In this document: one piece after another, positions 29,080-57,857 of the stretch
Layout: every line of letters starts with the position of its first letter
Position numbering within the stretch: position 1 is the stretch's first letter
Virus genome (UHGV): UHGV-0039337
Direction: 5' to 3' (one strand)
DNA: 64,000 nt
Source: a virus
Position numbers and translations under genes: made by a program
Notes under the pieces: generated by a model
Told to the model about the DNA's origin: nothing
Database searches by the model: none
The model's input: only the letters and a program-made list of their open reading frames with translations

Positions 29080-29094
29080 GGTGGTGAAAATATC

Positions 29095-29310: not shown

Positions 29311-29337
29311 TACAAATAAGAAAGGATGTGATGAATC

Positions 29338-40564: not shown

Positions 40565-40581
40565 TGGTTTTAAAAAAAGAA

Positions 40582-40946: not shown

Positions 40947-40951
40947 TTATA

Positions 40952-41485
40952 TCACCACCAATTTAGATATCTTTTCTTAATGGTCTACAAGGAATAGGCT
41001 ATGCCGACTATTCCCTATAGACAAACTGTACAGTTATTTATTGAGGTATCCTCGCTAACTCGAGGATACTATTCTATGGCATCTGCCGTTTCTTTTTACA
41101 GTCGGTAATGTGCCATCACAGTTTGAAAATAACTTAAAAGCTACCAAGTTTCTGGACTCAAACCATTACCTACTTTTCTTTGTATAGTGAGAAAAAGCTT
41201 AAAAACTCACATATATATCACTTTTAAAAAATATGTATTTCAAAAAAGTTGCCCGTGATATCATAATTCTAATGAGTTGAGATACATTTTGCTCTCTTAA
41301 GTATAGTTTAAAAATATCTACCACAATTCAATACGAATGAAAGGAGGGAGCCACCGATTGGCTCCCTAATAAATATGGAGGGAGATATTATAAATCAACT
41401 GCAATTAAACTTAATTGCTTCCTAGGTACAGTTACTGTTGTAACTAATTTACTAGGCTCATAAGGTCGTTGTAACCTCATTGATA
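40952..41485 (-). other. GC-enriched, ORF-free, highly structured region. Candidate long structured 5' leader or ncRNA transcribed leftward.
   Basis: Multiple perfect hairpins (GTATCCTCG-ctaact-CGAGGATAC; GGAATAG...CTATTCC; GGGAGCC-accgatt-GGCTCCC; AGTTAC-tgtt-GTAACT) plus long-range complementarity (GGTAATG...CATTACC; GACTGTA...TACAGT). A minus-strand sigmaA-like promoter candidate, TTGAAA-17-TGATATATA, lies at about 41215-41255. Confidence 0.35.
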
Positions 41486-41524
41486 ATAAAATTAGAAAGA
41501 GAAAATATAAGAGCTTTTTGCTCT
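41486..41524 (-). terminator. Rho-independent terminator for the leftward operon, downstream of the giant hydrolase gene.
   Basis: On the minus strand: AGAGC-aaaaa-GCTCT followed by UAUAUUUUCUCUUUCU. Confidence 0.6.
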
Positions 41525-41573
41525 CTACTAACTATTACTTAATAATATCTGTCTAATAGATTGTTTTGTAGAT

Positions 41574-44500
41574 TTATTTATATTTAGTCCAAAAACTTTG
41601 ACTAGTTATATTAACATCGTCTTTACAGAATTTAGTTACTTTATAAGTTGTTCCTCCATTTTTAACATAGTCTCTCCACAAAGTTTCACTATGAGCCATA
41701 TGCTTATAACAATATGTAACTGAAGCTGATACTCCTTTGCCAGAACCCCAAGATACTACGTATACGTCCATACGTCTATTACCATAATATACACTAGCTG
41801 GACAACAAATATCAAAATCAAATCCTGCATTACCAGTATCAGTTACAGTAAATATACAACTAGGATTTGCTGTTTGTCTACCTTTAAAGTATGGAATATA
41901 TACTTTAGTTCCATATGGAAGGTTATGAGAAGCTACCGTATTACATCTATTACTATGTAATCGATTACCTAAAGCATCGTTATATCCGCCTTCTCCTTCT
42001 TTGTATTGAGTACACTTAGATCCTTTAAGAGCCATTATGTATTTTACTCCATCTATTTCGCCTGCAGTTTCATCTATACCTGAACCGCCATTTTTAGAAG
42101 ATTTATCTGCGTTTATTAATGATTGTGGTCTTAGGAAATAACTATGTCCTGCATGTTTTCCTGTTACATAATAGTCTGCTTTTTCATATTTAATTCCATC
42201 ACGAGGACTTGAACTATGAGCTATCATTCCGTCTCCCATATAGATAATAGCATGTGTAGCTTTACATTCACTACCATTTGATAGATTATTTTTATCTATT
42301 AAACCTGGGCCATATGTCATTAATACATCTCCTGGTAATGCTTTAGCCATACCTTCTTTATCAGCGAACCATATCTTACCGCCTTTTTTAACTACTTCTT
42401 GTGCTAAAGTATTTCCCCCTGGATTTCCTTGTCCTGTGCTTCCGCTATAGAAATCAGAAAGGCCTGCTGCTTTATAACAACATGATACAAATGATGTACA
42501 GTCATAACCTATTTTACCATCAGAACATTTTTGTGGTTTATCATGGTCTACAGTTCTTGGGCTATTAGAATATTTAGCTTTTCCATCTTTGTATTCTTGT
42601 ACTATAGTTTTAGCCATTTCCGTAATTTTCTTTCTTATTGTTGCTCCGTTACCGTTTACTGAATCATCTATATCAGAGTTACCGTTATTATTACCATTGC
42701 CATTACCAGCACTATTAGCAGTTAATCCTATATTGCCTTTAATTCCATTATCGTATTCATAACCAGTTCTATTAAGATTAAAGTTTTCAAAGTAGAAATC
42801 TAATGAACTGTATTTATTTATTTGGACACTATCATCTTTTTCTCTTGTGTCTATCCATTCACCAGAAGCTATAATATCATATGTCTTTTTATCGATGCCC
42901 ATTTGTGTAGACTTTTCAGCTGAAGCTACGTTATCTTCTCCTGGGTCACCTTTTTGATTTTTATACTTAGCTGCTATTTTTTCTGTAGGATAGGCTTTAA
43001 TATCTGGACGTTGTAAATCAACAGATTCTTCTGTCCAATCCATCATAAATAAATAATCGCTAGGAAGTAGTTTATCTAATTCTTTAGCTCGTTCTTCTTT
43101 ATCAGTATATTTTTTCTTTATTTCTTTTTCTTTTAATTTTTTGTCAGCTGTTTGCCATTCATCTATCAAACTCTTTGGTTTTTTCTTTTCTTTTTTATTA
43201 GTATTAATATAATTATATCTTGAACTTCTTTTTTCTACATCATTTAAATTTTTGAAATCATCTAATGACATATAAGACATTTGCATATCATCAAGTATAG
43301 CTGAACCGTTAAATCCTGTTTCATCAAGTATATCATATATTGCACCTACGATAGGTTCATATCTAGTACATGTTAAACATTGATCCATGGTAACAGTTGC
43401 ACCGTCATGTACTCTATCGTCTCTTAAACATCTTATACATTTATATTTTCCCATTACACTTTGTCCACCATAATATACACAGTTTATATTAACACGTGAA
43501 GCCATACGTCCTAGATATCTAGTTACTGTTGATAATATGTTTTCTATACGTACTAATCTTTGTTCAGTCATCTTAGATTGATTAATAGCCATATCATTAA
43601 GCATTGCAAAATTCTTAGCCATAGGATGTGCTATCGGACATCCAGGATGATTACAACTATATACTCTATTTTCTATTTCATCTATTAAAACTTTAGGATA
43701 ATGATTCTCTAAGTCAGTTATCTTATCGTCATATGGATAAGGGTCCATATAGTTTACTGGTTTACCACTAGATTTTTTAGTTTTCTTATCTAGTAATTTA
43801 TAGTCATATGAGTATGATTTATCAAGTGCATCTTCAAGAGATATAGAAGCATCTTCTATTGTTGTTAATGGTATACTATTTTTGCTTAAAGAATCATAAG
43901 TACTAGTAGTATATTTAGGAGGTATAACTAAGTCTGGATATATAGGATCAACCTTACAGTCCATATTCTTATATAGTACACTTAATTCATCTACTGGTTT
44001 AACACAGTGATCTACAGAACCAGGACCTGTTTCTACTACTTTATAACGTATCATATTATCAGTAAAAGTATAAATCTTTTCAGTTAATACTTCTAAACGA
44101 GAATCTGAAGTTAATCCTACAGTTTTAACTTCTACCAAATCTTTATCATATGGTTCAAATGAGTTAGTATATATGTCTATATTAGCTGCTGTAGAATATG
44201 TCATTATTTCTTCATATTCTTTTTGTGTTATAATAGTTTTTATATCTGGTTGTGTAGCGTTAGCTTCAGTAGGTTTTGCTACTTTATATATCATTACACC
44301 ACCATTATCTATAGATGTAGTACCTAATCCAGATAATGTTATTCCTGATGTACTGCTACTATCTCCTATTGTATTATCTATGTTATTCTTATATATTTTT
44401 TCTATTGTTATATCATCTATATATAAATCAAACTTATTTTTGCTTCCTATGAATAGTTTGTAATTACTATCTTCTAATCCAGTAAATATACATCCTATAC

Positions 44501-47500
44501 GTGTCCATATAGTATTTGATATTCCTGATATATCTACTTCTTTTTCGTATTTAACTTTATTTGATTTATCTAATAGTTTTATTGATATATTTGTCTGTTT
44601 TAGTTTGTCTGGATCTAGTGGGCCACTATTTTCATCTTTTTGTGTGACTTGTTTTATATAAAATAATACTCTTAAATAACATTTGCTATCTTTTGCGTCA
44701 AAGTTTTGTGATATACCTGATATCTTATTGCTCGCATTTTTTATACGTGCAAATCCAGTTTTTCTATAAGGCCAATGTCCTTTAGTTCCCCATTCTGGGT
44801 TTGTTATACGTGAGAATTCTATAGAACCCATTTTTGACCACATTGATATATCGTCTTCTTCGAAATCAGCATTTTTTAATGATACTAAGTCAAGATTTCC
44901 TGACGAATTATTATTTTCTTCTTCGCCGTTATCCGGTTTTATTACTTCATCTCCAGGATCTTTTCCATTAGATACTTTAAAATCAGAGTTATCAAATGTA
45001 ACAGCATATGCTTTAACGTATCCAGATGTATCGTTTGTTTTTATTTTATATAAGCCTAGTTTTACATCTGTTCCTATAATAACTACTTTAGTTTGCTCAC
45101 TAAGGTCTTTATTTTGTTTTGCTAATTTAGTGTCTTTATAATAATCTGTATTTTCAAATTTAATCCAACATGTTTGTCCAACATAACTTTGAGATACTTC
45201 TCCATGATTTTTACCTATTACTACCACGTCTTCTTTTAATACATAACCAGTTTTCTTATTAAATTTACATTTATAATATGTGTTCTTTTCTCCGGTTATT
45301 TCTAATTCATCACCAACTGCTAATTTTGCTACTTTGCCTGCTTTTTCTTTTGCATCCTTTTTCATTTCTGTTCCTGATGTATTACCTACATAACAATACT
45401 GCTTATCGTTTTTAGTTTTCGGAGCTCTCATAGCAAATGTAGATGCATGATTTTCTTCTTTTGGTTCATCATGATGGTCACTATCTCCAACCATAAGTAT
45501 TTCAGTTACCAATGTAATATTAGTTGTAGATTCTATTATGCTTTTTATATTATTATAATATGTTATATAATTATTTAATGTTATTCCATCAGAGTTAACG
45601 ATAGAATCTTTTAAATATCCCTCTGAATCCATTAAGTCTTTAGATATATCTATAAAATAAAATCCATTTTTTATACAGTATGATTTTAAATTATTATTGT
45701 ATTTATCAAGAGCTTCATTAAAAGCATCTGCACTTTTATAATCTTGCTCTGAATATCTTTTTCCACAATGAGGTAATTTAGCTACATATACAGGAACGTT
45801 ATTATATAGCTCTTTTATTTTATTTAAAAATCTTACTGTATCATTAGATTCTAAGTTTTCTTTTAATCTGTTATATCCTAAATGTATATATACAAATGAG
45901 ACGTCTTTATTCATTCCTTCTAGTCTGTCTATATTCTTAGTAGGATTGTAATAATAAGAAGAATCTTTAGATATTGCAGCTTCACATATACTATATGTTT
46001 CACCTGTACTGCTTACAAAGTAACTTCCTTCTAATTCATTACTATCTCCTACTATTAGATCTCTCATTTCATATTCCCAGTTATCTCCTATAAACAATCC
46101 AGGATATTGAGTTGGATATATTTCTTCGGTATCGTTATCATCATCTATAGTAGCAATAGCATTAACAGCTCTTTTCCTTGCGGCAAAAGTTTTGACTGCT
46201 GCAGATTTTGCATCACTGTTAGCACTTATGTGACTATCAGTATTATTTTTCTTACCATTTGGAGATACATAATTTAATGGATTTACTGGTGTACCTTTTG
46301 TACCTGAAAAATCTTTATGTACTTCAAAATGTAAGTGAGGTCCGGTACCTATACCAGAGTTACCTACTTCTGCTATCTTATCGCCTTGTTTAACTGATTG
46401 CCCTACTGTTACTATATATTTATTAAGATGTTGATATAATGTTCCTATTCCGTTTCCGTGATCTATTACTACGTAATTACCACGTCCACCATTATATCCT
46501 GTTTTTGCTACAACTACTTTACCAGAATCAGCTGCTATAACTTTTGTACCTTTAGATGCTGGTATATCTAAGCCTCTATGAAATGTAGAAGCTCCAGGAG
46601 TTGGCGCTTTTCTTGGTCCAAAATTTGAAGATATTCTAGTTGATCCAGGTAATGGCCATATAAAATTACCTGAGCCTTTCTCATTTCCGTCACTGTTATT
46701 GTCGTTATTATTGTTGCTATTGTCATTATTACCATTGCCATTGTTTCCAGGTACTATTACTCCATTAGGAAGTGGAGCTGTTTCTATAAAGTTATTAGTA
46801 TTTTGGTTCGTTAATAGATTATTAGGTATATAAGTCGATGTAACTTTACCATACTTTTTATTTAACCAACTTACTTGTTTATCTACTTCTTTACAAAATG
46901 CTATCCATTTATCCTTGTCTAAATACAAGAATGGTGACGGCGCTCTATTAAGATCAAATTCACGCCATAATTGTTTACTAGTAAAGCCTTCATCATATAA
47001 TGCTTTAGCGCATTGTTCTATTAATTTTTTCTCTGTTTTAGGATAATCAACATTACCTGTTTTTTCTACTAAATCATATTCATCATAGAAGAATTCTCCT
47101 ATACTTAATGTGTATTTAGGATGTTGATTATTAAATAGATTGGCGTCTATATATGTATGCGTATTGTTATCAACACTCGCAAAACATATTTTCCCTTTAT
47201 CTACTTTATCCCATGTTATAACTTTTTTATCTGTAGTATTAGATACTGTTTTATTTGTATTTTTTGTGTTTACAAATGCAGCTCTAGTCAAAGCAAACAT
47301 AGTTGTTTCGACTTGTGGGAAAGGATTCTTTTTATATCCTCCTCCAGGTTCTACATAATCTAATGGATCTACATACTTACCATCTATCAGCATTCCAAAA
47401 TGTAAATGCATTAAAGGATTTGACACTGTAACACCTGTTGTACCTATACATTGACCTTTTGTTACAGTGTCTCCTTCTTTTACCTTTATCTCATCAAGTG

Positions 47501-49415
47501 AACCATATACGGTTTGTACTTTATTTCCGTGATCTATACGTACGTAGCCTTTTAATTTAGTATCCGTTAATACTTTTTTTACTACACCATCTGCGTAACA
47601 GAATGCTCCGCTCCCTGTATAATTTGCTATATCAATACCTGGATGGTAATTATATCCGAGCGTATCCGTTCTATATCCAAAGTATGATTGTATATATGTT
47701 TGCATAGGTGCAGGCCAACCAAATGGCTCACTTTGTTGTTGCACTGTTATTTCATCGTTTAAATATGTGCCGTAATCATTTGCATATGCTGATATTTGTT
47801 CTTGATCATAAGATCTATCAGCAAATGTGCTAAATGTTTTCGCTCTTAATCGTTTAGAACCTGATGAGTTAGAAAATTTATCGTACCATTTTTGTGCGTA
47901 TTTTCCTCTAATTCCTGTACCATCCGCACCATCTTCCGCTCTTTCAAAAACATGGCCAAATATTTTAGCTGCTTGTTTAGGATCGGTTAACTTCTTCCAT
48001 GAATCTAGCGTCATATTATATCTTGATTTTCTTAAATGATCAATATATGAATCTCCGCTCCATTCTATCCACATATATTGTATTTGAATATCTGGATCCG
48101 ACCATTCTTTACCAGCTTTTTTGGCGTAATTTTTTAAGGCATTTGCTCTATCGCCTAATAGTTGAAATAATCCTGTAGCTCCTAATCTATTTACATTTTT
48201 TGGATCGAAACTAGATTCTGTTTCTGCATTACCTACTATACCACAAGCTGCAGCTACACTACATCCTTGTGAGATACAATAATTATATATTTTGGTAGGT
48301 ATATCATTTCCGTCTATCTTGTTTATCCCTTCTGATTCTTTTCCTTCCTCCGGTGTTGATCCATCAGTAGAGTTATTGCCTCCATTATTAACTGTAACAT
48401 TTTCTCCGTTTATGATTACAGTTTGATTTAATGGATCTTTAGGTTTTACTTCAAAATCTGATAACGATGAACCTACTATATTACCACCTGTAGTTTGTCC
48501 ACTTGCAGGTTTTTTATTAAAATCTATCTTAGTATCTTTATCCACTTTATAATGAAAGTTTCTATCCCACCCTAGACTTTCAAAATACTTAGCCATACTG
48601 TCTGCAGTACAGTCATGGTAAGGTGGATACATATGCAAGGTTATACCTTTTATCTTATGCATATCTACCCAGTTGTCACTTACATTAGCATTAGGTAATG
48701 ATTCTTGTACAGTAGTAGTGTTATTATAAATTACTGTTATGGAATTGCCTGAACCACTTCCATAATTATTCCCTGAATTACCTTCAGATGGTGCATTGTT
48801 TCCTGAACCATCACCTGTATTTCCATTATCACCAGGTTCTGCTCCGTCTTCTGAACCTAGCTTTTTAAATTTGCTAGAATCTAAATTAAATTTTTTATCG
48901 CCTATTTTAAAACCACAAATAAAACCATCTGATGCATGTGATCTAGGTCTTATTCCTGAAGAGAATACTCCTCTAGGGTCATTTATTACTACATCGTTTC
49001 CGCTCATGGCTACTAATACTACATAGTGTCCTGCTGGTCCATAGCATGTTCTTAAACATCTTTCATGCCAGCTTGTACCAGGATCTTTTCGTCCATCTAA
49101 TACTATTGGATATCCTTGTTTAGCTAATTCACAGCATTTATCAAAACTAGTTATCTTTTCTACTGGTACATTAAATTGTTTACTGATATAAGGGAATAAT
49201 GTATTTTTATCTGCGCCACCACTTGGATTCCATCCATGGCCTTTACATTTTTGACATAGCATATTAGGCGCTACATCTTTACCTAATGCTTTTAGTACCA
49301 TAGATATGGCAGTAGTTGCGCAACCTGCATTCATAATATCCTCATCTATATTTTTATAAGCAACTTGTGACCAATAAGGGAAATCGTTGACTGTTTGTAC
49401 TGGTAGCTCTTGCAT
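41574..49415 (-). CDS. Giant (2613 aa) multi-domain peptidoglycan hydrolase with six lytic domains. Probably a virion-associated tail/ejection lysin.
   Basis: Domains: C39-like Cys peptidase (GCATTAISMVL...HYVVLVAM); SLT-like (GNAETESSFDP...GATGLFQL); M23 no.1 (YHPGIDI...RIDHGN...HLHFGM); M23 no.2 (FHRGLDI...VIDHGNG...HLHFEVH); possible GDSL/SGNH (LIVGDSN; LMVGDSD); NlpC/P60 (GYDCTSFV...THAIIYMGDG); 3D (TVTDTGNAGFDFDICC). Confidence 0.85.
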   Translation of the reverse strand: MQELPVQTVNDFPYWSQVAYKNIDEDIMNAGCATTAISMVLKALGKDVAPNMLCQKCKGHGWNPSGGADKNTLFPYISKQFNVPVEKITSFDKCCELAKQGYPIVLDGRKDPGTSWHERCLRTCYGPAGHYVVLVAMSGNDVVINDPRGVFSSGIRPRSHASDGFICGFKIGDKKFNLDSSKFKKLGSEDGAEPGDNGNTGDGSGNNAPSEGNSGNNYGSGSGNSITVIYNNTTTVQESLPNANVSDNWVDMHKIKGITLHMYPPYHDCTADSMAKYFESLGWDRNFHYKVDKDTKIDFNKKPASGQTTGGNIVGSSLSDFEVKPKDPLNQTVIINGENVTVNNGGNNSTDGSTPEEGKESEGINKIDGNDIPTKIYNYCISQGCSVAAACGIVGNAETESSFDPKNVNRLGATGLFQLLGDRANALKNYAKKAGKEWSDPDIQIQYMWIEWSGDSYIDHLRKSRYNMTLDSWKKLTDPKQAAKIFGHVFERAEDGADGTGIRGKYAQKWYDKFSNSSGSKRLRAKTFSTFADRSYDQEQISAYANDYGTYLNDEITVQQQSEPFGWPAPMQTYIQSYFGYRTDTLGYNYHPGIDIANYTGSGAFCYADGVVKKVLTDTKLKGYVRIDHGNKVQTVYGSLDEIKVKEGDTVTKGQCIGTTGVTVSNPLMHLHFGMLIDGKYVDPLDYVEPGGGYKKNPFPQVETTMFALTRAAFVNTKNTNKTVSNTTDKKVITWDKVDKGKICFASVDNNTHTYIDANLFNNQHPKYTLSIGEFFYDEYDLVEKTGNVDYPKTEKKLIEQCAKALYDEGFTSKQLWREFDLNRAPSPFLYLDKDKWIAFCKEVDKQVSWLNKKYGKVTSTYIPNNLLTNQNTNNFIETAPLPNGVIVPGNNGNGNNDNSNNNNDNNSDGNEKGSGNFIWPLPGSTRISSNFGPRKAPTPGASTFHRGLDIPASKGTKVIAADSGKVVVAKTGYNGGRGNYVVIDHGNGIGTLYQHLNKYIVTVGQSVKQGDKIAEVGNSGIGTGPHLHFEVHKDFSGTKGTPVNPLNYVSPNGKKNNTDSHISANSDAKSAAVKTFAARKRAVNAIATIDDDNDTEEIYPTQYPGLFIGDNWEYEMRDLIVGDSNELEGSYFVSSTGETYSICEAAISKDSSYYYNPTKNIDRLEGMNKDVSFVYIHLGYNRLKENLESNDTVRFLNKIKELYNNVPVYVAKLPHCGKRYSEQDYKSADAFNEALDKYNNNLKSYCIKNGFYFIDISKDLMDSEGYLKDSIVNSDGITLNNYITYYNNIKSIIESTTNITLVTEILMVGDSDHHDEPKEENHASTFAMRAPKTKNDKQYCYVGNTSGTEMKKDAKEKAGKVAKLAVGDELEITGEKNTYYKCKFNKKTGYVLKEDVVVIGKNHGEVSQSYVGQTCWIKFENTDYYKDTKLAKQNKDLSEQTKVVIIGTDVKLGLYKIKTNDTSGYVKAYAVTFDNSDFKVSNGKDPGDEVIKPDNGEEENNNSSGNLDLVSLKNADFEEDDISMWSKMGSIEFSRITNPEWGTKGHWPYRKTGFARIKNASNKISGISQNFDAKDSKCYLRVLFYIKQVTQKDENSGPLDPDKLKQTNISIKLLDKSNKVKYEKEVDISGISNTIWTRIGCIFTGLEDSNYKLFIGSKNKFDLYIDDITIEKIYKNNIDNTIGDSSSTSGITLSGLGTTSIDNGGVMIYKVAKPTEANATQPDIKTIITQKEYEEIMTYSTAANIDIYTNSFEPYDKDLVEVKTVGLTSDSRLEVLTEKIYTFTDNMIRYKVVETGPGSVDHCVKPVDELSVLYKNMDCKVDPIYPDLVIPPKYTTSTYDSLSKNSIPLTTIEDASISLEDALDKSYSYDYKLLDKKTKKSSGKPVNYMDPYPYDDKITDLENHYPKVLIDEIENRVYSCNHPGCPIAHPMAKNFAMLNDMAINQSKMTEQRLVRIENILSTVTRYLGRMASRVNINCVYYGGQSVMGKYKCIRCLRDDRVHDGATVTMDQCLTCTRYEPIVGAIYDILDETGFNGSAILDDMQMSYMSLDDFKNLNDVEKRSSRYNYINTNKKEKKKPKSLIDEWQTADKKLKEKEIKKKYTDKEERAKELDKLLPSDYLFMMDWTEESVDLQRPDIKAYPTEKIAAKYKNQKGDPGEDNVASAEKSTQMGIDKKTYDIIASGEWIDTREKDDSVQINKYSSLDFYFENFNLNRTGYEYDNGIKGNIGLTANSAGNGNGNNNGNSDIDDSVNGNGATIRKKITEMAKTIVQEYKDGKAKYSNSPRTVDHDKPQKCSDGKIGYDCTSFVSCCYKAAGLSDFYSGSTGQGNPGGNTLAQEVVKKGGKIWFADKEGMAKALPGDVLMTYGPGLIDKNNLSNGSECKATHAIIYMGDGMIAHSSSPRDGIKYEKADYYVTGKHAGHSYFLRPQSLINADKSSKNGGSGIDETAGEIDGVKYIMALKGSKCTQYKEGEGGYNDALGNRLHSNRCNTVASHNLPYGTKVYIPYFKGRQTANPSCIFTVTDTGNAGFDFDICCPASVYYGNRRMDVYVVSWGSGKGVSASVTYCYKHMAHSETLWRDYVKNGGTTYKVTKFCKDDVNITSQSFWTKYK

Positions 49416-49831
49416 TATTTATCCCTCTTATCTGTTGAAGATGCAGTAATTGTATTATCTAATATTTGTTGTCTTATTTTAGCGGCAGCTTGAGAGTCAT
49501 GTATGCCTAAATTAGCATAATCTATATCCCAAGTGTCTTTATCTTCTTCATACCATTGCTTTCTATCTAACAATGTTTTATTCATATATTCTCTTTCTGC
49601 TTCACGTAATGAAGTTATATAATCAAAGCCTTCCATATATTGTTGCGCTTTAGCGTAACCTTCTTCTCTTTTCTTTTCCCATTTTCTATCATGAGCATAA
49701 TTAAAATCTATTATAGCTCCATCTGTTGTGTCGATAAAGTACTCATCGCCATAAGCTAATAACTTATAGTAAGGAATATCGCATCTGATGCATTCATTAG
49801 GTTCTGTTATTCTACATAATATTAATGACAA
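49415..49831 (-). CDS. Hypothetical protein (138 aa). Its stop overlaps the giant-hydrolase start (TAATG).
   Basis: ORF with a GGAGG RBS, translationally coupled to the downstream gene. Confidence 0.5.
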   Translation of the reverse strand: MSLILCRITEPNECIRCDIPYYKLLAYGDEYFIDTTDGAIIDFNYAHDRKWEKKREEGYAKAQQYMEGFDYITSLREAEREYMNKTLLDRKQWYEEDKDTWDIDYANLGIHDSQAAAKIRQQILDNTITASSTDKRDK

Positions 49832-49896
49832 AAAATCGCCTCCATTTCATAGTAATCGTATATAATATATATTACTGAAATGAAGACGATTATATC

Positions 49897-52800
49897 TTAT
49901 CTGGATATTTTAAGTAATTTTTTAGAGATAGTTGGTTTAGGTGCTCTATTAAATAGACTACGTAATTTTCTATGACCTCTATTATCCATAGGGATTTCTA
50001 TACGGTCAGGTTTTCTATTATGTTTCTTTTCTGTATTGCTTACTTGTTTTATATGAGTAGCTGATTTAAATAAATTTTTATCTACTGTATTTTTAATTCC
50101 GTCTACTACGTTTGAAGCTATTTGAGTTAATACATCTTGGTTATCACTCATGGCACGTAATCCTTCTTCACTAAATTTACCTTCCATTGATTGTGCGGCG
50201 TGTAATTTAGTAGCCATTAGAGATAGTGTAGCTTCTTGAGTAGTACCTTCATAATATAGGAAATATACAGTTATATCTTTAGTTTGTGACAATCTCCATG
50301 ATCTTCTTGACGCTTGTCTCATAGTATTTAAATTATATCCTAACTGATAAAATACTATAGTAGTAAAATCTAATAGATTTAATCCAGTTTCTATTAAAGA
50401 TGGATTACATATTAACACATCGTATTTGTCTTTAATTAGTTTATTAATAAATTCTTCACGCTTTTCTGCTTTAACAGATGCTTTTAACTCAGCACTTTTA
50501 TATCCATATGAATTTATTAGTAATCTTATATGGTCTCCTAGATTTGTAGTACCTACATCATTATAATATACTAATACCTTTTCTCCTGCTAATACTTTAG
50601 TATTTATTATATCTAATAGTGCTAAGTCTTTATTGGTTGTAAATTCTTCTATTTCTGGTGCAGCAAATAATAGATTACCATCTTCAGTTGCTTCATCTTC
50701 TATGCAATGTGGAGCATCAGGAATAGTAAGCATACGTCTACAATATTGTCTAAGATATTTTCTATTATTTATATCATTATCTGTAGCCATACGTTTTATG
50801 AATTGTTCATAACTATTATAATATTTCAATGTTGTTTCATCCATTTCTATACTATATGGTATTTCTGTATAATTAGGTAGTCCTTCTGTCATATCTTCAA
50901 GAGACACAAAGACTGTATTGTTTAATAGAAATTTAGTAAATACTAATGATGATATACCAGGAAGTAATTTAGAGCTTCTTTTTTTTACTGTTCTTCCATC
51001 TATTATGGAAGTAGTACTATTAACTCCATATATTCTATTAAATTCAGCTTCATCTTCGTAGTTAAATCCTTCTCTTTTCATAGATTGAGGAAGCAATCTA
51101 TATAATAAATAATACATACTATTTACGAATCCGTTCATTAATGTACCTGTCATGGTAATGGTTTTCTTGCATGATTGAGCTAAAATATGAAAGGCATGTC
51201 CTTGTTCTGTTTTACCTTTATAGCTTTGAGCTTCATCAAAAATTCCATAATCAAACACATTATTCATACGTTTTTTAATATAACTAGCTATAGGATACTT
51301 TTTAGTACCTATATATTTATTATTTACTGTGCCGTTTCTAATTAAACTATTATGTTGATCACTTAAGTTTGCAAATAATTCAGAGTCTTTACGCGTCATC
51401 TTAATTCCAGAATTTAAGTAATGATTCATTAATATTTCTATTGTGTCTTTATGAATCCATCCTGATTTACCTAATTTAACCCATTGTAAATTATCATCAT
51501 CTCTATTTACTGCAGTCCATAATTTATTATTACATTTTTTCTTTCTATACGCTTCTTCTTTAAAGTCATATACTTTAATAGTGTTAGTACATATATCATT
51601 AATAGAGTTTTCTTTAGTAAAATCAGTTAGATCTAATGGTACTATTCTTTTTACTTTACGTGATGCACCTGGGTAAATTGGTACAGTAACATACTTAGTA
51701 AGTACTTGTCCACATTCAGGGCATACAAATACATTATTTGCTTTTACCATGTTGCCATGTTCATTTTTGTAGTATCCAATCTTTTTAAACAATACAGCTG
51801 GTCTATTTCCATATCCTATTTTGGCACTTTCTTTAGATAATATTACAAAAGAATTTTCTATTTTATATGGATCAGTTAATATGTCTTTAATAGCTAATAA
51901 TTCTTCTAAGTTGTGTATTATATACGATCTACTATTAGGAACAAAACGTGCTACTTCATTTTTCCAGTTATTAACTAAGTGTGACGGACACATTACAAGA
52001 GTATTAAATCCTTTATTCTTATTAGCATTATGAACATAACAAGCTGCGGAAGCCATAAGAGTTTTACCACTACCCATTTCTCCGACTAAGAACGTATTAC
52101 TATTAACGTTCATATTATTCACTATAGCTTGTATTGCTGAACGTTGTGCTTCATATAAATTAACACCAGCATTATAATATGCATAATCATCTATGTTATA
52201 TAAATAATTATCATAAGTATCTTCACCCGGTATAAATTTAGGTCTAAAAGATGTTTGAATCTTTTTAGCTAATCCTTCTCCAAATAATTGCAAATAATTA
52301 TCTATTCCTGTACAGTTATCTAGTATTGTAGAATGTTCATTCGATCCCTTGATATTAATAACTTCACTATTAAGCCCATCACGTACTATTTCTTCTAATA
52401 TATGTCGTGATCCAATTAATACATAACATAGTAAAGGTTGTTTTCCCTCTAATGCATAATATTCAGTATCTAATTGATTAAATCTCAATTGTTCTTCTAA
52501 TTTCTGTTTTATATATGGTATCCATTCTCTAAGTATAGGTATAGATGAATATTTAACAAGACGTTTGTATAACTCATCTTCTATATTAGATTCGGAATTA
52601 GTAAATATATATGATGTATAATTTTCATGGTTATCTTTAGTAACATAACTATCATTTGCATATGCTATCATGTGCACATAATCAGAATTAGGCATTTTCT
52701 TTGTTTTAATTACATATTTACTACTTGATATTATATAATATCTATTGTTTGCATATATAGTATGTGTTTTATTGTTATTAAGCATAGGTTTAATCATATT

Positions 52801-52935
52801 AATAGTAGAATTATACCCAATCATAGATATGAATATTGCATGTCCATAATTATTTATGATTATTGTATCGGCTTTACAGCCACTAAAACCTCCAATAGAT
52901 ATATTAATATAATCGTTCATTCTTTCTGCTGTCAT
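49897..52935 (-). CDS. SNF2-family (SF2) helicase with an N-terminal extension of about 270 aa.
   Basis: Motif I FLVGEMGSGKTL. Motif II IFDEAQSYKG. C-terminal helicase domain with motif VI MRQASRRSWRLSQ. Confidence 0.75.
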   Translation of the reverse strand: MTAERMNDYINISIGGFSGCKADTIIINNYGHAIFISMIGYNSTINMIKPMLNNNKTHTIYANNRYYIISSSKYVIKTKKMPNSDYVHMIAYANDSYVTKDNHENYTSYIFTNSESNIEDELYKRLVKYSSIPILREWIPYIKQKLEEQLRFNQLDTEYYALEGKQPLLCYVLIGSRHILEEIVRDGLNSEVINIKGSNEHSTILDNCTGIDNYLQLFGEGLAKKIQTSFRPKFIPGEDTYDNYLYNIDDYAYYNAGVNLYEAQRSAIQAIVNNMNVNSNTFLVGEMGSGKTLMASAACYVHNANKNKGFNTLVMCPSHLVNNWKNEVARFVPNSRSYIIHNLEELLAIKDILTDPYKIENSFVILSKESAKIGYGNRPAVLFKKIGYYKNEHGNMVKANNVFVCPECGQVLTKYVTVPIYPGASRKVKRIVPLDLTDFTKENSINDICTNTIKVYDFKEEAYRKKKCNNKLWTAVNRDDDNLQWVKLGKSGWIHKDTIEILMNHYLNSGIKMTRKDSELFANLSDQHNSLIRNGTVNNKYIGTKKYPIASYIKKRMNNVFDYGIFDEAQSYKGKTEQGHAFHILAQSCKKTITMTGTLMNGFVNSMYYLLYRLLPQSMKREGFNYEDEAEFNRIYGVNSTTSIIDGRTVKKRSSKLLPGISSLVFTKFLLNNTVFVSLEDMTEGLPNYTEIPYSIEMDETTLKYYNSYEQFIKRMATDNDINNRKYLRQYCRRMLTIPDAPHCIEDEATEDGNLLFAAPEIEEFTTNKDLALLDIINTKVLAGEKVLVYYNDVGTTNLGDHIRLLINSYGYKSAELKASVKAEKREEFINKLIKDKYDVLICNPSLIETGLNLLDFTTIVFYQLGYNLNTMRQASRRSWRLSQTKDITVYFLYYEGTTQEATLSLMATKLHAAQSMEGKFSEEGLRAMSDNQDVLTQIASNVVDGIKNTVDKNLFKSATHIKQVSNTEKKHNRKPDRIEIPMDNRGHRKLRSLFNRAPKPTISKKLLKISR

Positions 52936-52951
52936 TTTTTTTCACCTCCTT

Positions 52952-54415
52952 TTATGTTAAATTATAAAATGTTCCATCAGCACCTAATGCTGTTATCTGT
53001 ACTTTATTTCTTATTGTATCTGTAGATTCTGTAATTATTCTTCCATTTTGTGTTGATTGTTCGGTAACCCTATCTGTTTCTTTAATAGTCATACCTTTTA
53101 TTACGTGGCATATTTCACCACCTTCTTCTACTATACCATCAAGTGAACCTGATGATAAAATAAGTCCTATTTGTCCTATATTAAAAGGAAGTAAGGGACT
53201 CTTGTCTTCTTCTTCTATATGTTCATTTACTGATTTGTAAAATTCATCATATAATCCATCATTTAGTATAGCATCATCTAGTTCTTGTTTATCTAGTATA
53301 CTACCTCTGAATATTTTAATTTCTTCTTCTGGTAAATTAATAGTATATGATTCAGTTAAATAGTTTAATAAATCATCATATTTTATTCTAGATAATCTAT
53401 TAAATTCATCGCTATAAGATGGATTTGATGATTTAATACCTATTATAGTTACATATTTAAGTGCATGTCGGTTTTTATTCATATCATCATCAAATTGTGG
53501 ATCGGTACATTTAAATATTTGAATGTTCTTGAGATTCTTAGCTAAGAATAATTTAAAACTTGGAGATATATCATAAAATGGTAAATTAAGAATGAATATA
53601 CCGCCTAATTTTAAATAACGCATACTATTAGTAATTTGTATATCTTCATTAGTAACTGCTAATCTGCCATCAATCTTTTTAGTGGTATTTATTGTTAATC
53701 TAGGATTAACATATACTATATCGAATACATTGTTACTAATAATAGAGCCTTTAATAGATCCTAAAGCTACTCTATCCATATTATCTTTAGCTTTATCGGA
53801 GCCATAAGTCTCTTCACTTAATCCATAAGTCTTAACTGTTATATTATTATTTCTTTCTAGTTTATATTTTAAAAAGTATTCGTCTTCTCCTTCTCCACAT
53901 TGTATAGAGAATATATTTAATGATTTATTAGTTTTTATGTTGTCTGTTATTTCTGTTATAAAATCTGGATGCATTTTATATATATTTGTATTATCTTCTC
54001 TTATTTCTTTTGCTGCATATGATAAATTATAGCTACATAAATTATAACATTCATTAATTGCATTATTTATAGTATTTACACATGTATCATTAAATGCTTC
54101 TTTAATAGTTTGTATAGTTTCGCATTCCATAACTGTATTTAAAAAAGACTCTATCGTATTTTTATGTGATTGTATTCTCTCAAATACTGTATAGTCATCA
54201 TCAATAATACACAATGTATAATTAAATAGTCTTATACATTCTGTAGCATGTTTATATATAATAGAGCGTGATTTATTTATATCTTCTTTATCTGCTAAAC
54301 TAATTGTAATGTATGATCTAAGAGTATTAAGTTTAATTACTAACTCTTGTGATGGTCTGTAAAATGAAGTTGTTATATATATCACTCCTTTTTCTAATAA
54401 TAAAGGAGCGTACAT
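52952..54415 (-). CDS. Putative SAM-dependent (DNA) methyltransferase-like protein. The motifs are weak.
   Basis: Possible motif I LNIFSIQCGEGE and motif IV-like FDIVYVNPR. Sits between DnaE2 and the SNF2 helicase with starts and stops 5-17 nt apart. The functional call is tentative. Confidence 0.4.
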   Translation of the reverse strand: MYAPLLLEKGVIYITTSFYRPSQELVIKLNTLRSYITISLADKEDINKSRSIIYKHATECIRLFNYTLCIIDDDYTVFERIQSHKNTIESFLNTVMECETIQTIKEAFNDTCVNTINNAINECYNLCSYNLSYAAKEIREDNTNIYKMHPDFITEITDNIKTNKSLNIFSIQCGEGEDEYFLKYKLERNNNITVKTYGLSEETYGSDKAKDNMDRVALGSIKGSIISNNVFDIVYVNPRLTINTTKKIDGRLAVTNEDIQITNSMRYLKLGGIFILNLPFYDISPSFKLFLAKNLKNIQIFKCTDPQFDDDMNKNRHALKYVTIIGIKSSNPSYSDEFNRLSRIKYDDLLNYLTESYTINLPEEEIKIFRGSILDKQELDDAILNDGLYDEFYKSVNEHIEEEDKSPLLPFNIGQIGLILSSGSLDGIVEEGGEICHVIKGMTIKETDRVTEQSTQNGRIITESTDTIRNKVQITALGADGTFYNLT

Positions 54416-54420
54416 ATAAC

Positions 54421-56313
54421 TTACGCTCCTATACTATTTATTATTATTTTATTATCATCTGTAAACTTTCCTTTAAAGTTTATAGTTTTGTCTTTTTTTA
54501 AATTACTTTTATATTTATCTAGATTGAATAATAAAGCTTCATAATTACCTTCTTTAGTATCTAATGATATAAAAGCATATCTCTTTCCTGATTTAGCTTT
54601 ACGTTTAGTCACTTTTGTTATAATAGCTTGGCCACTTACATAAATATCATTATATTTAAGGTCTTCCAGATTACAACACTTATTATGAATATAATTAGCT
54701 TGACATAAAATTAATTCTATCTCATCTTCTGATGCATATAGTTCCAGGTTAGTATCTTTATTAATGAATATAGAGTATTTAGGTGGATCTGGATGTTTTT
54801 TCTTGGCTGAAAGATAATATAATTCTTCATATAATTCTATAACATTAGAGCCAAATGCTCCTATTGCTATCATGCTATTTAATGCTTTTGTATTACATAT
54901 ACTTTTATTTACATGTTTATATATATGAGCCACTAAAGAATCATCTTTATTTTCTTTTTCTTTATTTAGCCAATAAGTAGCAGCATTATAAGCGTTCTCA
55001 GATACATTTGCAAGGCAGCAGAAGCCGAGTCTAATCCCCTCTGTTTCTACTGTACATTTGTATTTTGATTTAGTTATATCAAGAGGTAGAAATTTAATAC
55101 CTACTTTCATACATTCATTTTGTATTGTTTTAAATTTAGCTTTACGTTCATCAGTTTTACCTGATTTATTATTATACATACAAGTTAAAGTTGCCGCATA
55201 AAATTCTTTAGGATAGTAAATTTTATAATATGCTGTTTCATAACAAGTTAAAGCATAAGCTACAGCATGAGATTTGTTGAAACTATATTTCCCTGAATCT
55301 AATATTAATTGAAATATTTTTTCAAATATATCATCAGTCATAATATTTTTACTTAACTCTTTTAATTCTGCTTTATATGAAGCTATTTTATCAAATTTTT
55401 TTTTGCTAGATGATTTCATAAGCGAATATGCTTCATGCAATGGCAATCCCATATTTGCACAACATTGCATTAATTCTTCTTGATAAATCATAACTCCATT
55501 AGTTGTCTTAGTAGCTTTATCATAAGCTGGATGTATATATTCTATATTTTCTTTGCCTTCTTGTATTTTCATATAATGTTCATCGAGCCCTGATTGAATA
55601 CAAGGGCCACGGACAAGAGCAAGACAATCAGCAAGTTGTTCTATATTACGTGGGTTTAATCTTCTCATGCGTTGTTTGTAAGTATTACTGCCTATTTGAA
55701 ATAGCCCTGTAGTATTACGAGAACAGATTAAATCCCATACTTTTTTATCATTTAATGGATCAAATTCTATATCTATTTTATGACCTGTAAGTTTTTCACA
55801 TTCGCTTAATATACATAAAGTATTTAATCCTAAATAATCATATTTTACTAAGGCCTGACTTTCTGCATCATGTAAATCAAGGGCTGTAGCATTTAATTCT
55901 TTTTTGTCTTGTCTAACCATTGGTGCTACATCAGATACTTTAGATTTAACTATTAATGTACCTGCTGCATGTATAGAAGTATGACATGGTAAACCTTCAA
56001 GCTTCATAGCCATTTCAAATACTTCTGGATATATTTCTTGCCACTCTCTAAGTTCTGGTACTATCTCTAATGATTCTTCTATTGATAAATCGCTTTGCTT
56101 TTCTGTGCCATCTTCAGATTCTTCATATACACATTGAGGTATTAGTTTAGCTATTTTATCTTCGGTCTTTAAGTCTATATTATATAATTTGCATACGCTT
56201 CTTATTGATGATCTTGCTTTACGTATACTAAAAGTAGATACAGCTGCACAATGATCAAGTCCATAAGTATCTAAAGTATACTTAAACATAATATCTCTAT
56301 AGTCACTAGGCAC
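54421..56313 (-). CDS. C-terminal portion (630 aa) of a second DnaE-like DNA polymerase III alpha. Continues from 56327..57577 after a +1 frame change.
   Basis: Begins within PDIDIDVPSDYRD (the canonical DnaE 'PDFDVDF'). Contains the GLPCHTSIHAAGTLIV catalytic motif. The frame is open upstream to 56355. Confidence 0.7.
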   Translation of the reverse strand: MPSDYRDIMFKYTLDTYGLDHCAAVSTFSIRKARSSIRSVCKLYNIDLKTEDKIAKLIPQCVYEESEDGTEKQSDLSIEESLEIVPELREWQEIYPEVFEMAMKLEGLPCHTSIHAAGTLIVKSKVSDVAPMVRQDKKELNATALDLHDAESQALVKYDYLGLNTLCILSECEKLTGHKIDIEFDPLNDKKVWDLICSRNTTGLFQIGSNTYKQRMRRLNPRNIEQLADCLALVRGPCIQSGLDEHYMKIQEGKENIEYIHPAYDKATKTTNGVMIYQEELMQCCANMGLPLHEAYSLMKSSSKKKFDKIASYKAELKELSKNIMTDDIFEKIFQLILDSGKYSFNKSHAVAYALTCYETAYYKIYYPKEFYAATLTCMYNNKSGKTDERKAKFKTIQNECMKVGIKFLPLDITKSKYKCTVETEGIRLGFCCLANVSENAYNAATYWLNKEKENKDDSLVAHIYKHVNKSICNTKALNSMIAIGAFGSNVIELYEELYYLSAKKKHPDPPKYSIFINKDTNLELYASEDEIELILCQANYIHNKCCNLEDLKYNDIYVSGQAIITKVTKRKAKSGKRYAFISLDTKEGNYEALLFNLDKYKSNLKKDKTINFKGKFTDDNKIIINSIGA

Positions 56314-56326
56314 ATCTATATCTATG

Positions 56327-57577
56327 TCAGGGTATTGTGCCCTTGCGGTGTATACTTAAAAATCTATCAAACATAAGATTATATTTAATAGAATCTACTT
56401 TGGTTATTTGAAGTAAATAAGCAACAATAGATCCGCATACGCTGCCTCTTCCAGGGCCCATTTTTGCTCCAATCTTATTCATATATTGTATTAGATCTCT
56501 TGTTATTAAAAAATAAGAACTAAATCCTAAATCATCTATAACTTTAAGCTCTTCATACATTCTATCAACGTATTGTGCTGGATTTTTAATTTTATATTGT
56601 ATTTGATCTAATCTTTCTAAACATAATTTTTCTATATAAGTTTTAGGAATATAACCTGTAGGACATTCAAATTCTGGAAGGTTTAACTCTTCTTGGTTGA
56701 AATCATATGATTCAACTTTATTAGATAAGTCCATAGTATTGTCTAATGCTTGATTAATTATATCTGCATTATACAATTCACTATTAAAAGAATTAAAGAT
56801 TTCATCTCTAGACATCATATAATATATTTTATCTGCATATATACTTTCATCTTCATTTTCTGGTGCTTTTAAATTACGCGTAATTCTTATATGAAAATCA
56901 TGAGTTTTCCAATCTTCCTTATTTATATAATGCACATCATTAGTAGCAATGAGTTTAATGTTTTTCTCTTCTGCTATATTAATCATTGCATTATTAACTT
57001 TAATTTGTTCATCAAAATTACCTGGTTGAATTTCTAAATATAAGTCATCTCTGAACATATTATATAATTCTTCAATATGATTAATAGCTTGTTCATTTTC
57101 ATTGTTTATAATAAGTTGAGGGGCATATCCTCCTACACAAGCTGTAGTACAGATAAGCCCCTCAGTATAGTCTTTTATATGTTCTAAATCTATACGTGGT
57201 TTATAATAATAATATTCAACAGATGCATCTGATACTATTTTCAATAAGTTAGATATGCCTGTTTTATTTTTAGCTATTAATACCATATGATATAACTTTT
57301 TATGTTCACTGTCTTTAATAGTACAGTCTTCACATAAATATATTTCACAGCCTATAAGTGGTTTAATATTATTGTTTATACACTCATAATAGAATCCATA
57401 CATATTACTTAAAGATCCGTGATCTGTTATAGCTATGGATTTCATATTAAGTTTTTTAGCTTTAGCAATTATATCTTTATTTGTAGCGATGGAATCTCCT
57501 ACCGATCCTTTTGTAGTATGCAAATGAGTTATGCAATAATTATTATAATAAGAAGTCATCGTTATCATCTTCTTCAT
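56327..57577 (-). CDS. N-terminal portion (416 aa) of the second DnaE-like polymerase (PHP domain). Ends at a UGA inside the conserved RFLxxxR motif.
   Basis: ITHLHTTKGSVGD...ITDHGSL is the PHP motif. MGPGRGSVCGSIVAYLL...MFDRFLSIHRKGTIP is followed by a stop. Confidence 0.7.
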   Translation of the reverse strand: MKKMITMTSYYNNYCITHLHTTKGSVGDSIATNKDIIAKAKKLNMKSIAITDHGSLSNMYGFYYECINNNIKPLIGCEIYLCEDCTIKDSEHKKLYHMVLIAKNKTGISNLLKIVSDASVEYYYYKPRIDLEHIKDYTEGLICTTACVGGYAPQLIINNENEQAINHIEELYNMFRDDLYLEIQPGNFDEQIKVNNAMINIAEEKNIKLIATNDVHYINKEDWKTHDFHIRITRNLKAPENEDESIYADKIYYMMSRDEIFNSFNSELYNADIINQALDNTMDLSNKVESYDFNQEELNLPEFECPTGYIPKTYIEKLCLERLDQIQYKIKNPAQYVDRMYEELKVIDDLGFSSYFLITRDLIQYMNKIGAKMGPGRGSVCGSIVAYLLQITKVDSIKYNLMFDRFLSIHRKGTIP

Positions 57578-57854
57578 CTATTTCGAAAATGTCATCTATA
57601 CCTAAAGGAATTTCTCCATCGTTTTCTTTCATTGTACAATCTATACATTGTTTCTTTTTATGTCCGCTTTCAAACGCTAAACAAGAAAAAGTATAATCCT
57701 CATCTTCATCTATATCAATACTTATATGATTTTTTGTGCAATAGCATTTTATATTTTTAAAATCGTATGGACTTAAACAGCATGCTGTATTATATTTACA
57801 TCCAGTAAGATAACATTCTACAGTAGTTTTATTATTTTTGTTATTTGTTTGCAT
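57543..57854 (-). CDS. Small Cys-rich protein with an acidic C-terminus (103 aa).
   Basis: ORF with about 10 Cys residues (CYLTGC...CC...CYC...C...CIDC). Confidence 0.45.
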   Translation of the reverse strand: MQTNNKNNKTTVECYLTGCKYNTACCLSPYDFKNIKCYCTKNHISIDIDEDEDYTFSCLAFESGHKKKQCIDCTMKENDGEIPLGIDDIFEIDEEDDNDDFLL

Positions 57855-57857
57855 TAT

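Follow-up and report, generated by a model that had tools for sequence, protein, structure and literature searches.

The 64,000-nucleotide stretch of virus genome UHGV-0039337 analyzed here (the window) carries on its minus strand a string of genes for a second DnaE-type DNA polymerase (DnaE2), a methyltransferase (MTase)-like protein of 487 amino acids (aa), an SNF2-family ATPase, a small protein and a giant cell-wall hydrolase. This string is a conserved unit of a clade of uncultivated, large (150-280 kb), low-GC gut phages. Judged from its motifs, the methyltransferase active site has decayed in the clade and is apparently dead, while the ATPase motifs of the neighboring motor appear strictly constrained. 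The MTase-like and SNF2 proteins are homologous to a gene cassette of large and conjugative plasmids, in which the catalytic motif is intact, and they are separated from the small and giant genes by an RNA hairpin that pairs the ribosome-binding site of the small gene. We favor, at slightly less than even confidence, a reading in which the string comprises two adjacent, separately controlled units that the clade keeps together: a polymerase-linked pair that would act on phage DNA inside the cell, and a wall-breaching enzyme that would be carried by the virion.

A gene block conserved in a clade of gut phages

Related loci were gathered with the MTase-like protein as bait and come from one clade; 38 were taken from IMG/VR and two from genome collections, the latter labelled as a 'Bacilli bacterium' metagenome-assembled genome and an 'uncultured Gemella' assembly. 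Every open reading frame (ORF) of the window was compared by tblastn with the 35 loci that have full flanks. The MTase-like gene and the SNF2 gene were present in all 35, DnaE2 in 33 to 34 and the giant protein in 33; the small gene was detected in 18, and the window genes further upstream in 0 to 12. Order and strand of the block were constant in all loci except one (L040), where DnaE lies downstream. Relatives at 93%, 36%, 37% and 30% identity all keep the order DnaE2, DUF6094-like gene, SNF2, small gene and giant hydrolase, the giant gene being fragmented in L005, the most distant of these four tabulated relatives. Locus L040 is rearranged, yet its MTase-like and SNF2 genes are still contiguous with the gene of a 685-aa hydrolase that has M23 and lysozyme domains, and RecJ and DnaE come after this trio and not before it; the 685-aa hydrolase matches part of the middle region of the giant protein (tblastn, E = 2e-35). 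The MTase-like gene, SNF2 and the hydrolase are thus the tightest part of the block. Since the block is shared by 33 to 35 of the 35 loci, and since the trio stays contiguous even in L040, we regard it as a conserved unit of the clade. Conservation of the gene neighborhood in related phages, which the first-pass annotation of this DNA had named as a check on its own proposal, is strong for four of the genes.

Database searches place the clade among uncultivated phages. A word index lists 68 relatives of the 487-aa protein, the longest of their contigs reaching 278 kb, and no cultured relative was found: by tblastn against GenBank phages, the MTase-like and SNF2 proteins matched only unannotated 'Bacteriophage sp.' faecal fragments. 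The 8.2-kb region had no megablast match among GenBank phages or PLSDB plasmids. The G+C content is 26-34% (2-kb bins across the window).

The first-pass annotation had described five minus-strand genes with overlaps or gaps of 1-17 nt and had taken them for a tight operon. Their positions hold, and so do the short distances read from the sequence: a TAATG at 49415 that joins the stop of the small gene to the start of the giant gene, an overlap kept in the relatives L001 and L002; a gap of 5 nt between DnaE2 and the MTase-like gene; and a gap of 16 nt, with an AGGAGG site inside, between the MTase-like and SNF2 genes. The 5-nt and 16-nt gaps leave no room for a promoter. However, the string consists of six ORFs, counting the split DnaE2 as two, and the gap between SNF2 and the small gene is 65 nt and contains a strong hairpin. 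Moreover, the minus strand is closely packed throughout its 19 ORFs between 63985 and 40582, with four exceptions (gaps of 73, 240, 65 and 686 nt), so that close spacing does not single out these genes and says little. What exceeds chance in the gene string is its conservation and not its spacing: the string is real and conserved, but its packing is typical of the array and the hairpin divides it. No minus-strand terminator-like site was found within 41574-58000, and three terminator-like sites lie 3' of the giant gene (Table 1).

The DUF6094 protein, its SNF2 partner and their plasmid relatives

By profile comparison, the MTase-like protein is best described as a divergent member of the Pfam family DUF6094 (PF19587; 41.3 bits against a cut-off of 22.8, E = 1.1e-10, profile positions 137-306 of 344); the same family was matched by 18 of 18 aligned relatives, with a best E-value of 1e-22. 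Its AlphaFold model (pLDDT 82) consists of a helical N-terminal domain (residues ~1-140), a class I Rossmann-type MTase core (~145-345) and a beta-rich C-terminal domain (~400-487), a predicted fold of the TaqI/EcoKI-type (gamma-class) N6-adenine methyltransferases. The earlier assignment as MTase-like is thus borne out for the fold, by the model and by DUF6094, but not for the catalytic motif, which reads NPRL in place of NPP(Y/F). In a library of viral structures, the best long alignments were with segments of giant uncultured-phage proteins annotated as MTase, helicase or lytic transglycosylase (LT_GEWL). A search of PDB sequences with the family profile yielded nothing beyond spurious coiled-coil matches to the N-terminal helices, and PADLOC and NCBIfam gave no match.

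The catalytic signature of gamma-class enzymes, (N/D/S)PP(Y/F/W) after strand 4, is absent from the window protein, and its decay extends through the family. Of the four motif IV positions, scored in 197 members, the first holds Asn in 42, the third Pro in 30, and the fourth an aromatic residue in 10 and Ile, Val or Leu in 162. The S-adenosylmethionine-binding motif I (xGxG loop) reads FSIQCGEGE in the window protein; the second Gly is found in 138 of the 197 members and the first in 46, and some members have a loop with no Gly at all. The most conserved stretch of the family is instead C-terminal, where alignment A1 reads PLLPFNIGQIGLILSSGSLDG...H..KG. With the family profile, HMMER recovered 1443 clusters at 50% identity, and the best 150 of these representatives are all standalone proteins of ~190-500 aa, with no fusion among them. 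A family of this size that keeps its full length and an invariant C-terminal motif points to purifying selection, and the decayed catalytic motif makes methylation in the manner of the phage P1 protein DarB unlikely.

The SNF2 identity given by the first-pass annotation was confirmed. The protein matches Pfam SNF2-rel_dom (E = 2.8e-13) and Helicase_C (E = 1.5e-11) and, at the sequence level, the PDB entries for INO80, SWR1 and Rad54. It comprises an N-terminal domain, a zinc-ribbon insert (CPECG) and a large insert between its two RecA-like lobes, and the motifs expected of a SWI2/SNF2 ATPase are in place: among clade homologues, Walker A and DExH/Q are each intact in 116 of 116, and motif VI with its arginines in 115 of 116. 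To judge from these counts, the ATPase would have stayed under strict constraint while the methyltransferase site decayed. The best 120 relatives are standalone proteins of ~570-1030 aa, with no fusion among them, and Pfam and PHROG scans of the N-terminus at E-values of up to 1 were uninformative. Two further observations concern SNF2 genes in relatives. Several kilobases of inserted small genes break up the gene in L026 (11156-20460), and also in L015 and L025. Furthermore, L001 and L040 encode a second, smaller SNF2 protein, adjoining Gam, with DnaG or UvrD nearby.

Both families also occur on plasmids. By tblastn, the MTase-like protein was detected in 192 plasmid records, mostly large Bacillus plasmids in which it is annotated as DUF6094, and SNF2 in 343. 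All four plasmids inspected encode DUF6094 followed by a DEAD/SNF2-type helicase on the same strand: Thermoanaerobacterium pMU3262 (a gap of ~16 nt, an ArdC-like gene upstream, and ADP-ribosyltransferase, Rad52 and VirB4-like genes downstream), the MOBH conjugative plasmid Aliivibrio pKB1A97-67, Butyrivibrio pNP144 (cassette upstream of a PrgI-family transfer gene) and B. cereus pG9842_209. Three of the four have transfer genes close to the cassette, and two have ArdC, ADP-ribosyltransferase or SSB genes nearby. The one helicase compared directly, that of pMU3262, is a full-length homologue of the window SNF2 protein (C-terminal 448 residues, 36% identity, E = 3e-84; N-terminal 473 residues, 27% identity, E = 5e-33), and the CPxCG zinc-ribbon insert lies within the alignment.

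The plasmid cassette and the phage pair therefore share both families, their order and strand, the zinc-ribbon insert and the C-terminal motif, which is visible as P.LP..G...G in two of the plasmid proteins (B. cereus and Thermoanaerobacterium). They differ at the active site. NPPY is intact in 4/4 plasmid DUF6094 proteins, and motif I is canonical or near-canonical (a CGxG loop in three, IGDG in the fourth), whereas the phage clade has lost both motifs. The plasmid proteins, of 328-378 aa, all lack the N-terminal helical domain, and their cassettes adjoin neither DnaE nor a giant hydrolase with the conserved core described below. From the homology and the motif comparison, the phage pair appears to be a copy of a mobile-element cassette with a decayed methyltransferase site. 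We found no experimental study of the DUF6094-SNF2 cassette, which is annotated only.

One plasmid record stands apart. The best plasmid E-value for SNF2 (3e-111) belongs to OY725881.1, an unannotated PLSDB entry of 167,780 bp from Subdoligranulum variabile, in which the match to the MTase-like protein lies 41 kb from the match to SNF2. This record may be a phage or phage-plasmid akin to the clade, and hence a clue to the host.

The spacer hairpin, the giant hydrolase and the wider window

The transcript of the spacer between SNF2 and the small gene is predicted to fold into a hairpin with a free energy (dG) of -22.6 kcal/mol and a z-score of -6.2, and none of 200 shuffled sequences was as stable. 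An equivalent hairpin occurs in seven of nine distinct relatives (dG -21 to -27, z -3.5 to -6.9), in which the arms have different sequences and are still complementary, and in which the GUAAU loop and a U-rich tract are kept. MAFFT and RNAalifold could not align the arms of this leader hairpin, so that the support for it rests on the folds of the individual sequences. The arrangement suggests that the hairpin insulates the small and giant genes from upstream read-through. Since a hairpin predicted to mask the ribosome-binding site sets these two genes apart, the string is probably not one simple coupled operon.

Hairpins of a similar kind lie elsewhere in the window, on the plus strand. One (23948-23995, dG -23.8, z -6.8) masks the ribosome-binding site of the ORF at 24003, and a weaker one (26710-26762, z -2.5) stands before the ORF at 26780, which precedes the gene of a GH25 muramidase. 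In both, a purine-rich, Shine-Dalgarno-like stretch is paired upstream, and the loops are AT-rich and -10-like. The -10-like loop motif was considered as a late promoter and dropped, since similar motifs precede both replication and structural genes.

The small protein had no significant match in Pfam, PHROG, PADLOC or NCBIfam, and scans of Pfam and PHROG at E-values of up to 1 were uninformative. The giant protein, in contrast to it, is rich in recognizable wall-active domains: Pfam identified a C39-like peptidase (C39_2, E = 6.5e-10), a phage tail lysozyme (Phage_lysozyme2, E = 2e-31) and two Peptidase_M23 domains (E = 2e-51), the last family also being matched in NCBIfam. An SGNH/GDSL domain and an SH3 domain fall below the Pfam cut-off, and NlpC/P60 is matched weakly (E = 0.0029). 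One relative in the JGI data is named as a 3D-domain protein. Its globular domains are strung together by low-complexity linkers, and no obvious N-terminal signal sequence was seen in the translation, which was inspected by eye, with no predictor run.

Mapping of coverage across the relatives identified one constant part of this protein. A core with a long helix and a cysteine cluster is present in 37 of 38 loci, and the enzymatic domains around it come and go; total length among relatives ranges from ~560 to 2618 aa. Database relatives of the core are 414-1310 aa long and combine it with NlpC/P60, amidase_2, glucosaminidase, SLT, M23, lysozyme or VgrG3-like domains. The core itself had no match in Pfam or PHROG (scans up to E = 1), and none by tblastn in 50,697 GenBank phage records or in plasmids. 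A model of residues 1700-2420 (AF2, pLDDT 50) was too poor for a fold search. Virion-associated lysins likewise combine a conserved part with exchangeable wall hydrolases, and by this analogy the giant protein is probably such a lysin. In the distant relatives L028 (14206-19624) and L005 (15752-19605) the giant protein appears as several smaller ORFs or with uncalled stretches, which could reflect real splitting or a different genetic code.

PHROG matches of the giant protein are labelled endolysin or tape measure, all of them by way of the M23 and lysozyme domains, and we considered whether it might be a phage endolysin or a tail tape-measure protein. Both identities were rejected as highly improbable. 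The window carries separate wall hydrolase genes, close together, for GH25 muramidase, glucosaminidase and amidase_3 with SH3, which are candidate lysis enzymes; the giant protein is no long helical ruler but a string of globular domains, and its length varies several-fold among relatives; and its gene is flanked not by tail genes but by SNF2 and a terminator.

DnaE2, the first gene of the string, is split in the window. The N-terminal ORF matches PHROG 405 (DNA polymerase, E = 1.5e-118), Pfam PHP (E = 2.8e-41) and positions 2-99 of the 260-position DNA_pol3_alpha profile; the C-terminal ORF matches positions 110-260 of that profile, DNA_pol3_finger (E = 1.3e-34) and HHH_6. The catalytic PDIDID motif is restored in the +1 frame past CCC_TGA. 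The relatives L001 and L002 have one base fewer at this site and an intact DnaE2 (1046 and 1040 aa). An exact-sequence look-up of the 416-aa product returned no record, so no independent assembly confirms the frameshift. The site (CCC_UGA_C) resembles a prfB-type +1 shift site, yet two relatives are intact, and the split could stem from an error of assembly, from a genuine mutation or from programmed frameshifting. Insertions of 0.5-3 kb interrupt DnaE2 in L004 (8149-8697), L005 (6264-7588) and L012 (5218-8374), one of which bears an HNH endonuclease gene, suggesting mobile introns or inteins at DnaE2.

Two DnaE-type polymerases, at 37198-40509 (+) and 54421-57577 (-), face each other across the giant gene; the first of them is only ~29% identical to the DnaE2 genes of relatives (tblastn), and the closest DnaE of a cultured phage is at most 30% identical. 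Moorella phage MTATph1 was examined as a parallel and set aside, its DnaE neighborhood having no comparable cassette. About 1 kb (40535-41574), with one 101-aa ORF, separates the convergent DnaE1 and giant genes. In addition to the intact first DnaE, the window encodes an AEP primase, a DnaB helicase and RecJ. Ten large plus-strand ORFs (393-1451 aa) at 101-22574 have no Pfam match; three of them have PHROG matches to Hoc-like decoration or tail-fibre families, and all ten presumably encode structural proteins of a lineage not yet described. Searches of the whole window for tRNA genes and Rfam families gave no match.

Table 1 Positions of the genes, motifs and predicted RNA elements discussed in the text (coordinates of the window).
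Feature	Position	Strand	Description
DnaE2, overall span	54421..57577	-	two ORFs
DnaE2, N-terminal ORF	56327..57577	-	416 aa; PHP and first part of the pol III alpha domain
+1 frameshift site splitting DnaE2	56327..56332	-	CCC_TGA; context ATA CCC TGA C
DnaE2, C-terminal ORF	54421..56313	-	630 aa; remaining alpha domain, fingers, HhH, OB
MTase-like protein	52952..54415	-	ORF, 487 aa
Motif IV position of the MTase-like protein	53696..53707	-	NPRL in place of (N/D)PP(Y/F/W); context FDIVYVNPRL
Most conserved stretch of the MTase-like family, PLLPFNIGQIGLILSSGSLDG	53135..53197	-	invariant columns P407-G427 in alignment A1
SNF2	49897..52935	-	ORF, 1012 aa
RNA hairpin in the spacer from SNF2 to the small gene	49834..49891	-	GGAGG paired with upstream arm; GUAAU loop; U-run after
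Small protein	49415..49831	-	ORF, 138 aa; TTG start, GGAGG ribosome-binding site
Giant protein	41574..49415	-	ORF, 2613 aa
Universal core of the giant protein	43236..43778	-	residues ~1880-2060; long helix and CxxC...CxxC cluster
Two terminator-like hairpins just downstream of the giant gene	41345..41525	-	
Bidirectional terminator-like hairpin	40535-40562		13-bp
GH25 muramidase, glucosaminidase and amidase_3+SH3 genes	27479-30252	+	three wall hydrolase genes close together

Competing readings and known systems

In the reading that we favor, the first unit would consist of DnaE2, a pseudo-methyltransferase derived from DUF6094 and a double-stranded DNA translocase of the SNF2 family. The MTase-like protein would assist the SNF2 motor as a subunit that binds DNA or a partner without catalysing a reaction, the invariant C-terminal PLLPFN..G motif being the likely interface. 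Made inside the infected cell together with the polymerase, the pair would act on incoming or replicating phage DNA without methylating it, possibly by displacing or blocking DNA-tracking defence or repair complexes of the host. The second unit would be the small protein and the giant hydrolase, translationally coupled and shielded from upstream read-through by the hairpin over the ribosome-binding site of the small gene, with the giant protein acting as a virion-borne, wall-breaching entry enzyme for a Gram-positive host.

Several points weigh against this reading. The expression timing and the virion location of the proteins are, like the heteromer and its mode of action, what we infer. The same type of -10-like motif stands before structural and replication genes alike and therefore does not fix the timing of expression, and the GUAAU loop with its U-run could mark a terminator or a protein-binding site instead of a translational mask. 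F231, D232 and N228 are invariant in alignment A1 and lie near the old active site, where they could support a non-canonical catalysis. The best viral fold matches are segments of giant proteins of the class proposed to be injected (PMC5512222). Finally, the MTase-like gene, SNF2 and the hydrolase stay together in L040, where DnaE has moved, so that a shared entry function fits at least as well as two independent units.

Such a shared function was the proposal of the first-pass annotation, which took the genes for a candidate injected anti-restriction and entry module. Stated for the present data, the MTase-like, SNF2, small and giant proteins would be packaged and ejected together as a DarB-like kit, in effect a split polyvalent protein. 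Polyvalent proteins of the DarB type, for which travel with the DNA has been proposed, are characterized by just such an MTase-SNF2 dyad (PMC5512222), and the kit would also account for the fold matches to giant phage proteins annotated as MTase, helicase or LT_GEWL and for the fact that the hydrolase, SNF2 and MTase-like genes stay contiguous in 33-35 of 35 loci, including the one in which DnaE has moved. The plasmid cassette near transfer genes in three of four cases, with ArdC and ADP-ribosyltransferase genes also nearby in pMU3262, points the same way. The anti-defence leading regions of conjugative elements have been noted to include orphan methyltransferases and darB genes; plasmid leading-region genes, however, are typically expressed in the recipient and not moved as protein (PMC11541004). 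We consider the kit unlikely, given that sequence similarity to DarB was not detected, that the catalytic motif has decayed, and that the pair of MTase-like and SNF2 genes is tightly joined to DnaE2 (in L001, the closest relative, to dUTPase and DUF488 genes as well) with no room for a promoter of its own. Neither gene of the pair is near head or portal genes, the hairpin divides the pair from the small and giant genes, and a Pfam scan found no MuF, portal-linked or processing-peptidase domains. A variant of the idea, which we think quite unlikely, keeps the motor and drops the methylation: the SNF2 protein and its dead methylase-like partner would be loaded with the giant lysin and ejected as one entry machine, in which the lysin opens the Gram-positive wall and the motor, sitting on the entering end of the ~270-kb genome, pulls it in or shields it from DNA-tracking restriction complexes.

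The remaining alternatives loosen the link between the pair and the hydrolase. The SNF2 and MTase-like proteins might be replication or recombination accessories of the second DnaE, for instance in fork remodelling or roadblock clearance as performed by T4 UvsW, with the giant hydrolase functionally unrelated. DnaE2 is immediately upstream in 33 to 34 of 35 loci, with a 5-nt gap in the window, the surrounding array is one of replication and nucleotide metabolism (Gam, DnaG, HU, dUTPase), and SNF2 helicases of jumbo phages have been proposed as substitutes for UvsW (PMC7824862). We hold this role to be rather improbable, as the smaller second SNF2 protein beside Gam in L001 and L040 is a better candidate for it, the plasmid cassettes have no DnaE, and in L040 the pair does not adjoin DnaE. 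It could also be that no functional link exists, the genes being core genes of the clade in ancestral order and the MTase-like gene a decaying relic. The sampling of a single clade with the MTase-like protein as bait and the decayed motif are in keeping with this, but we regard it as very unlikely: the full length and the invariant C-terminal motif kept across 1443 clusters indicate purifying selection, the pair is joined on unrelated plasmids as well, and the genes upstream are shuffled while the block is not.

The DUF6094-SNF2 cassette is common, its phage branch alone comprising more than 1,400 protein clusters at 50% identity, and the phage clade offers a natural separation-of-function series in which the ATPase is strictly conserved and the methyltransferase site decayed. 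Should the pair still have a part in protecting or establishing incoming DNA, it would not do so by methylation, and such non-methylating action would bear on how DarB-type anti-restriction works. The giant protein is relevant to cell entry by large phages of Gram-positive gut bacteria and, with its unannotated anchoring core and interchangeable wall hydrolases, is a possible source of lytic enzymes.

For the second unit, comparison can be made with other phages. In T4, early read-through RNA of gene e (lysozyme) buries the ribosome-binding site in a leader hairpin. The spacer hairpin resembles that leader in that the Shine-Dalgarno sequence of a wall-hydrolase unit forms its 3' arm and in having an AT-rich, -10-like loop; it differs in that the GUAAU loop is not a T4 late promoter and that the U-run permits reading it as a terminator. 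Phi29 gp13 is a virion-associated peptidoglycan hydrolase with lysozyme and M23 domains. As in phi29 gp13, phiKZ gp181 and T7 gp16, enzymatic domains, lysozyme and M23 modules among them, are exchanged around a conserved structural part in the giant protein. The latter, in contrast, far exceeds these proteins in size and carries as many as eight modules that act on or bind the wall; no relative of its core was detected in GenBank phages, and its gene follows DNA-metabolism genes and is not placed in a tail module.

The first-pass annotation had also likened the pair to DrmMI and DrmD of DISARM, where an adenine MTase is likewise paired with an SNF2 helicase. This likeness did not hold. DISARM is a host defence system whose partners DrmA, DrmB and DrmC are missing here; PADLOC gave no match for the MTase-like, small or giant protein; and SNF2 matches DrmD weakly and partially (E = 0.0056 over ~55 residues), with ZorD and DpdE scoring better as generic SNF2 matches.

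The resemblance to DarB is one of arrangement. P1 DarB, a phage protein that is packaged and protects DNA in cis from type I restriction, combines an MTase-like module with an SF2 helicase module behind it and is the archetype of the methylase-helicase dyad, the two parts of which may be fused or lie in neighboring genes (PMC5512222). To that extent the comparison drawn by the first-pass annotation stands, but homology was not detected: DarB gave a probability of 0.9% (E = 0.06) in hhalign against family profile A1 and a best BLASTP E-value of 0.9 against SNF2, and no P1-like match was found by tblastn among GenBank phages. DarB is one polypeptide of 2255 aa, whereas here the two modules are two genes, and it keeps an N.PF motif where the window protein has NPRL. 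Its gene adjoins the portal gene, and a late promoter is annotated for the neighboring pro operon in the same intergenic region.

A published counterpart is the polyvalent protein dyad. Both fused and split MTase-SNF2 dyads, as well as polyvalent proteins bearing lysozyme domains, were reported in 2017, and polyvalent proteins with MTase, helicase or lysozyme domains were proposed to travel with injected DNA (Iyer et al., PMC5512222), so the combination cannot be called undescribed, as the first-pass annotation had supposed. An adenine-MTase fold lies beside a SWI2/SNF2 ATPase in all 35 loci and all four plasmids, as that dyad is defined, and both systems couple an EcoKI/TaqI-like MTase fold to a SWI2/SNF2 ATPase with helical inserts, with lysozyme companions common. 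They differ in that the genes here are separate in the best 150 MTase-like and the best 120 SNF2 relatives, and in that NPP(Y/F) is lost; the N-terminal 140 residues, modelled as helical, show in alignment A1 no conserved GxG(G/A/S) motif of the LPD36 type and no TP motif such as caps the MTase helix in that dyad. What is known, then, is the theme of a DNA-entry or anti-restriction pairing of MTase and SNF2. What is new is decay of the methylase half, as read from its motifs, in a large phage clade whose motor has not decayed, the fixed linkage of this pair to a giant lysin bearing an unannotated conserved core, and a conserved, putatively masking hairpin between SNF2 and the unit of the small and giant genes.

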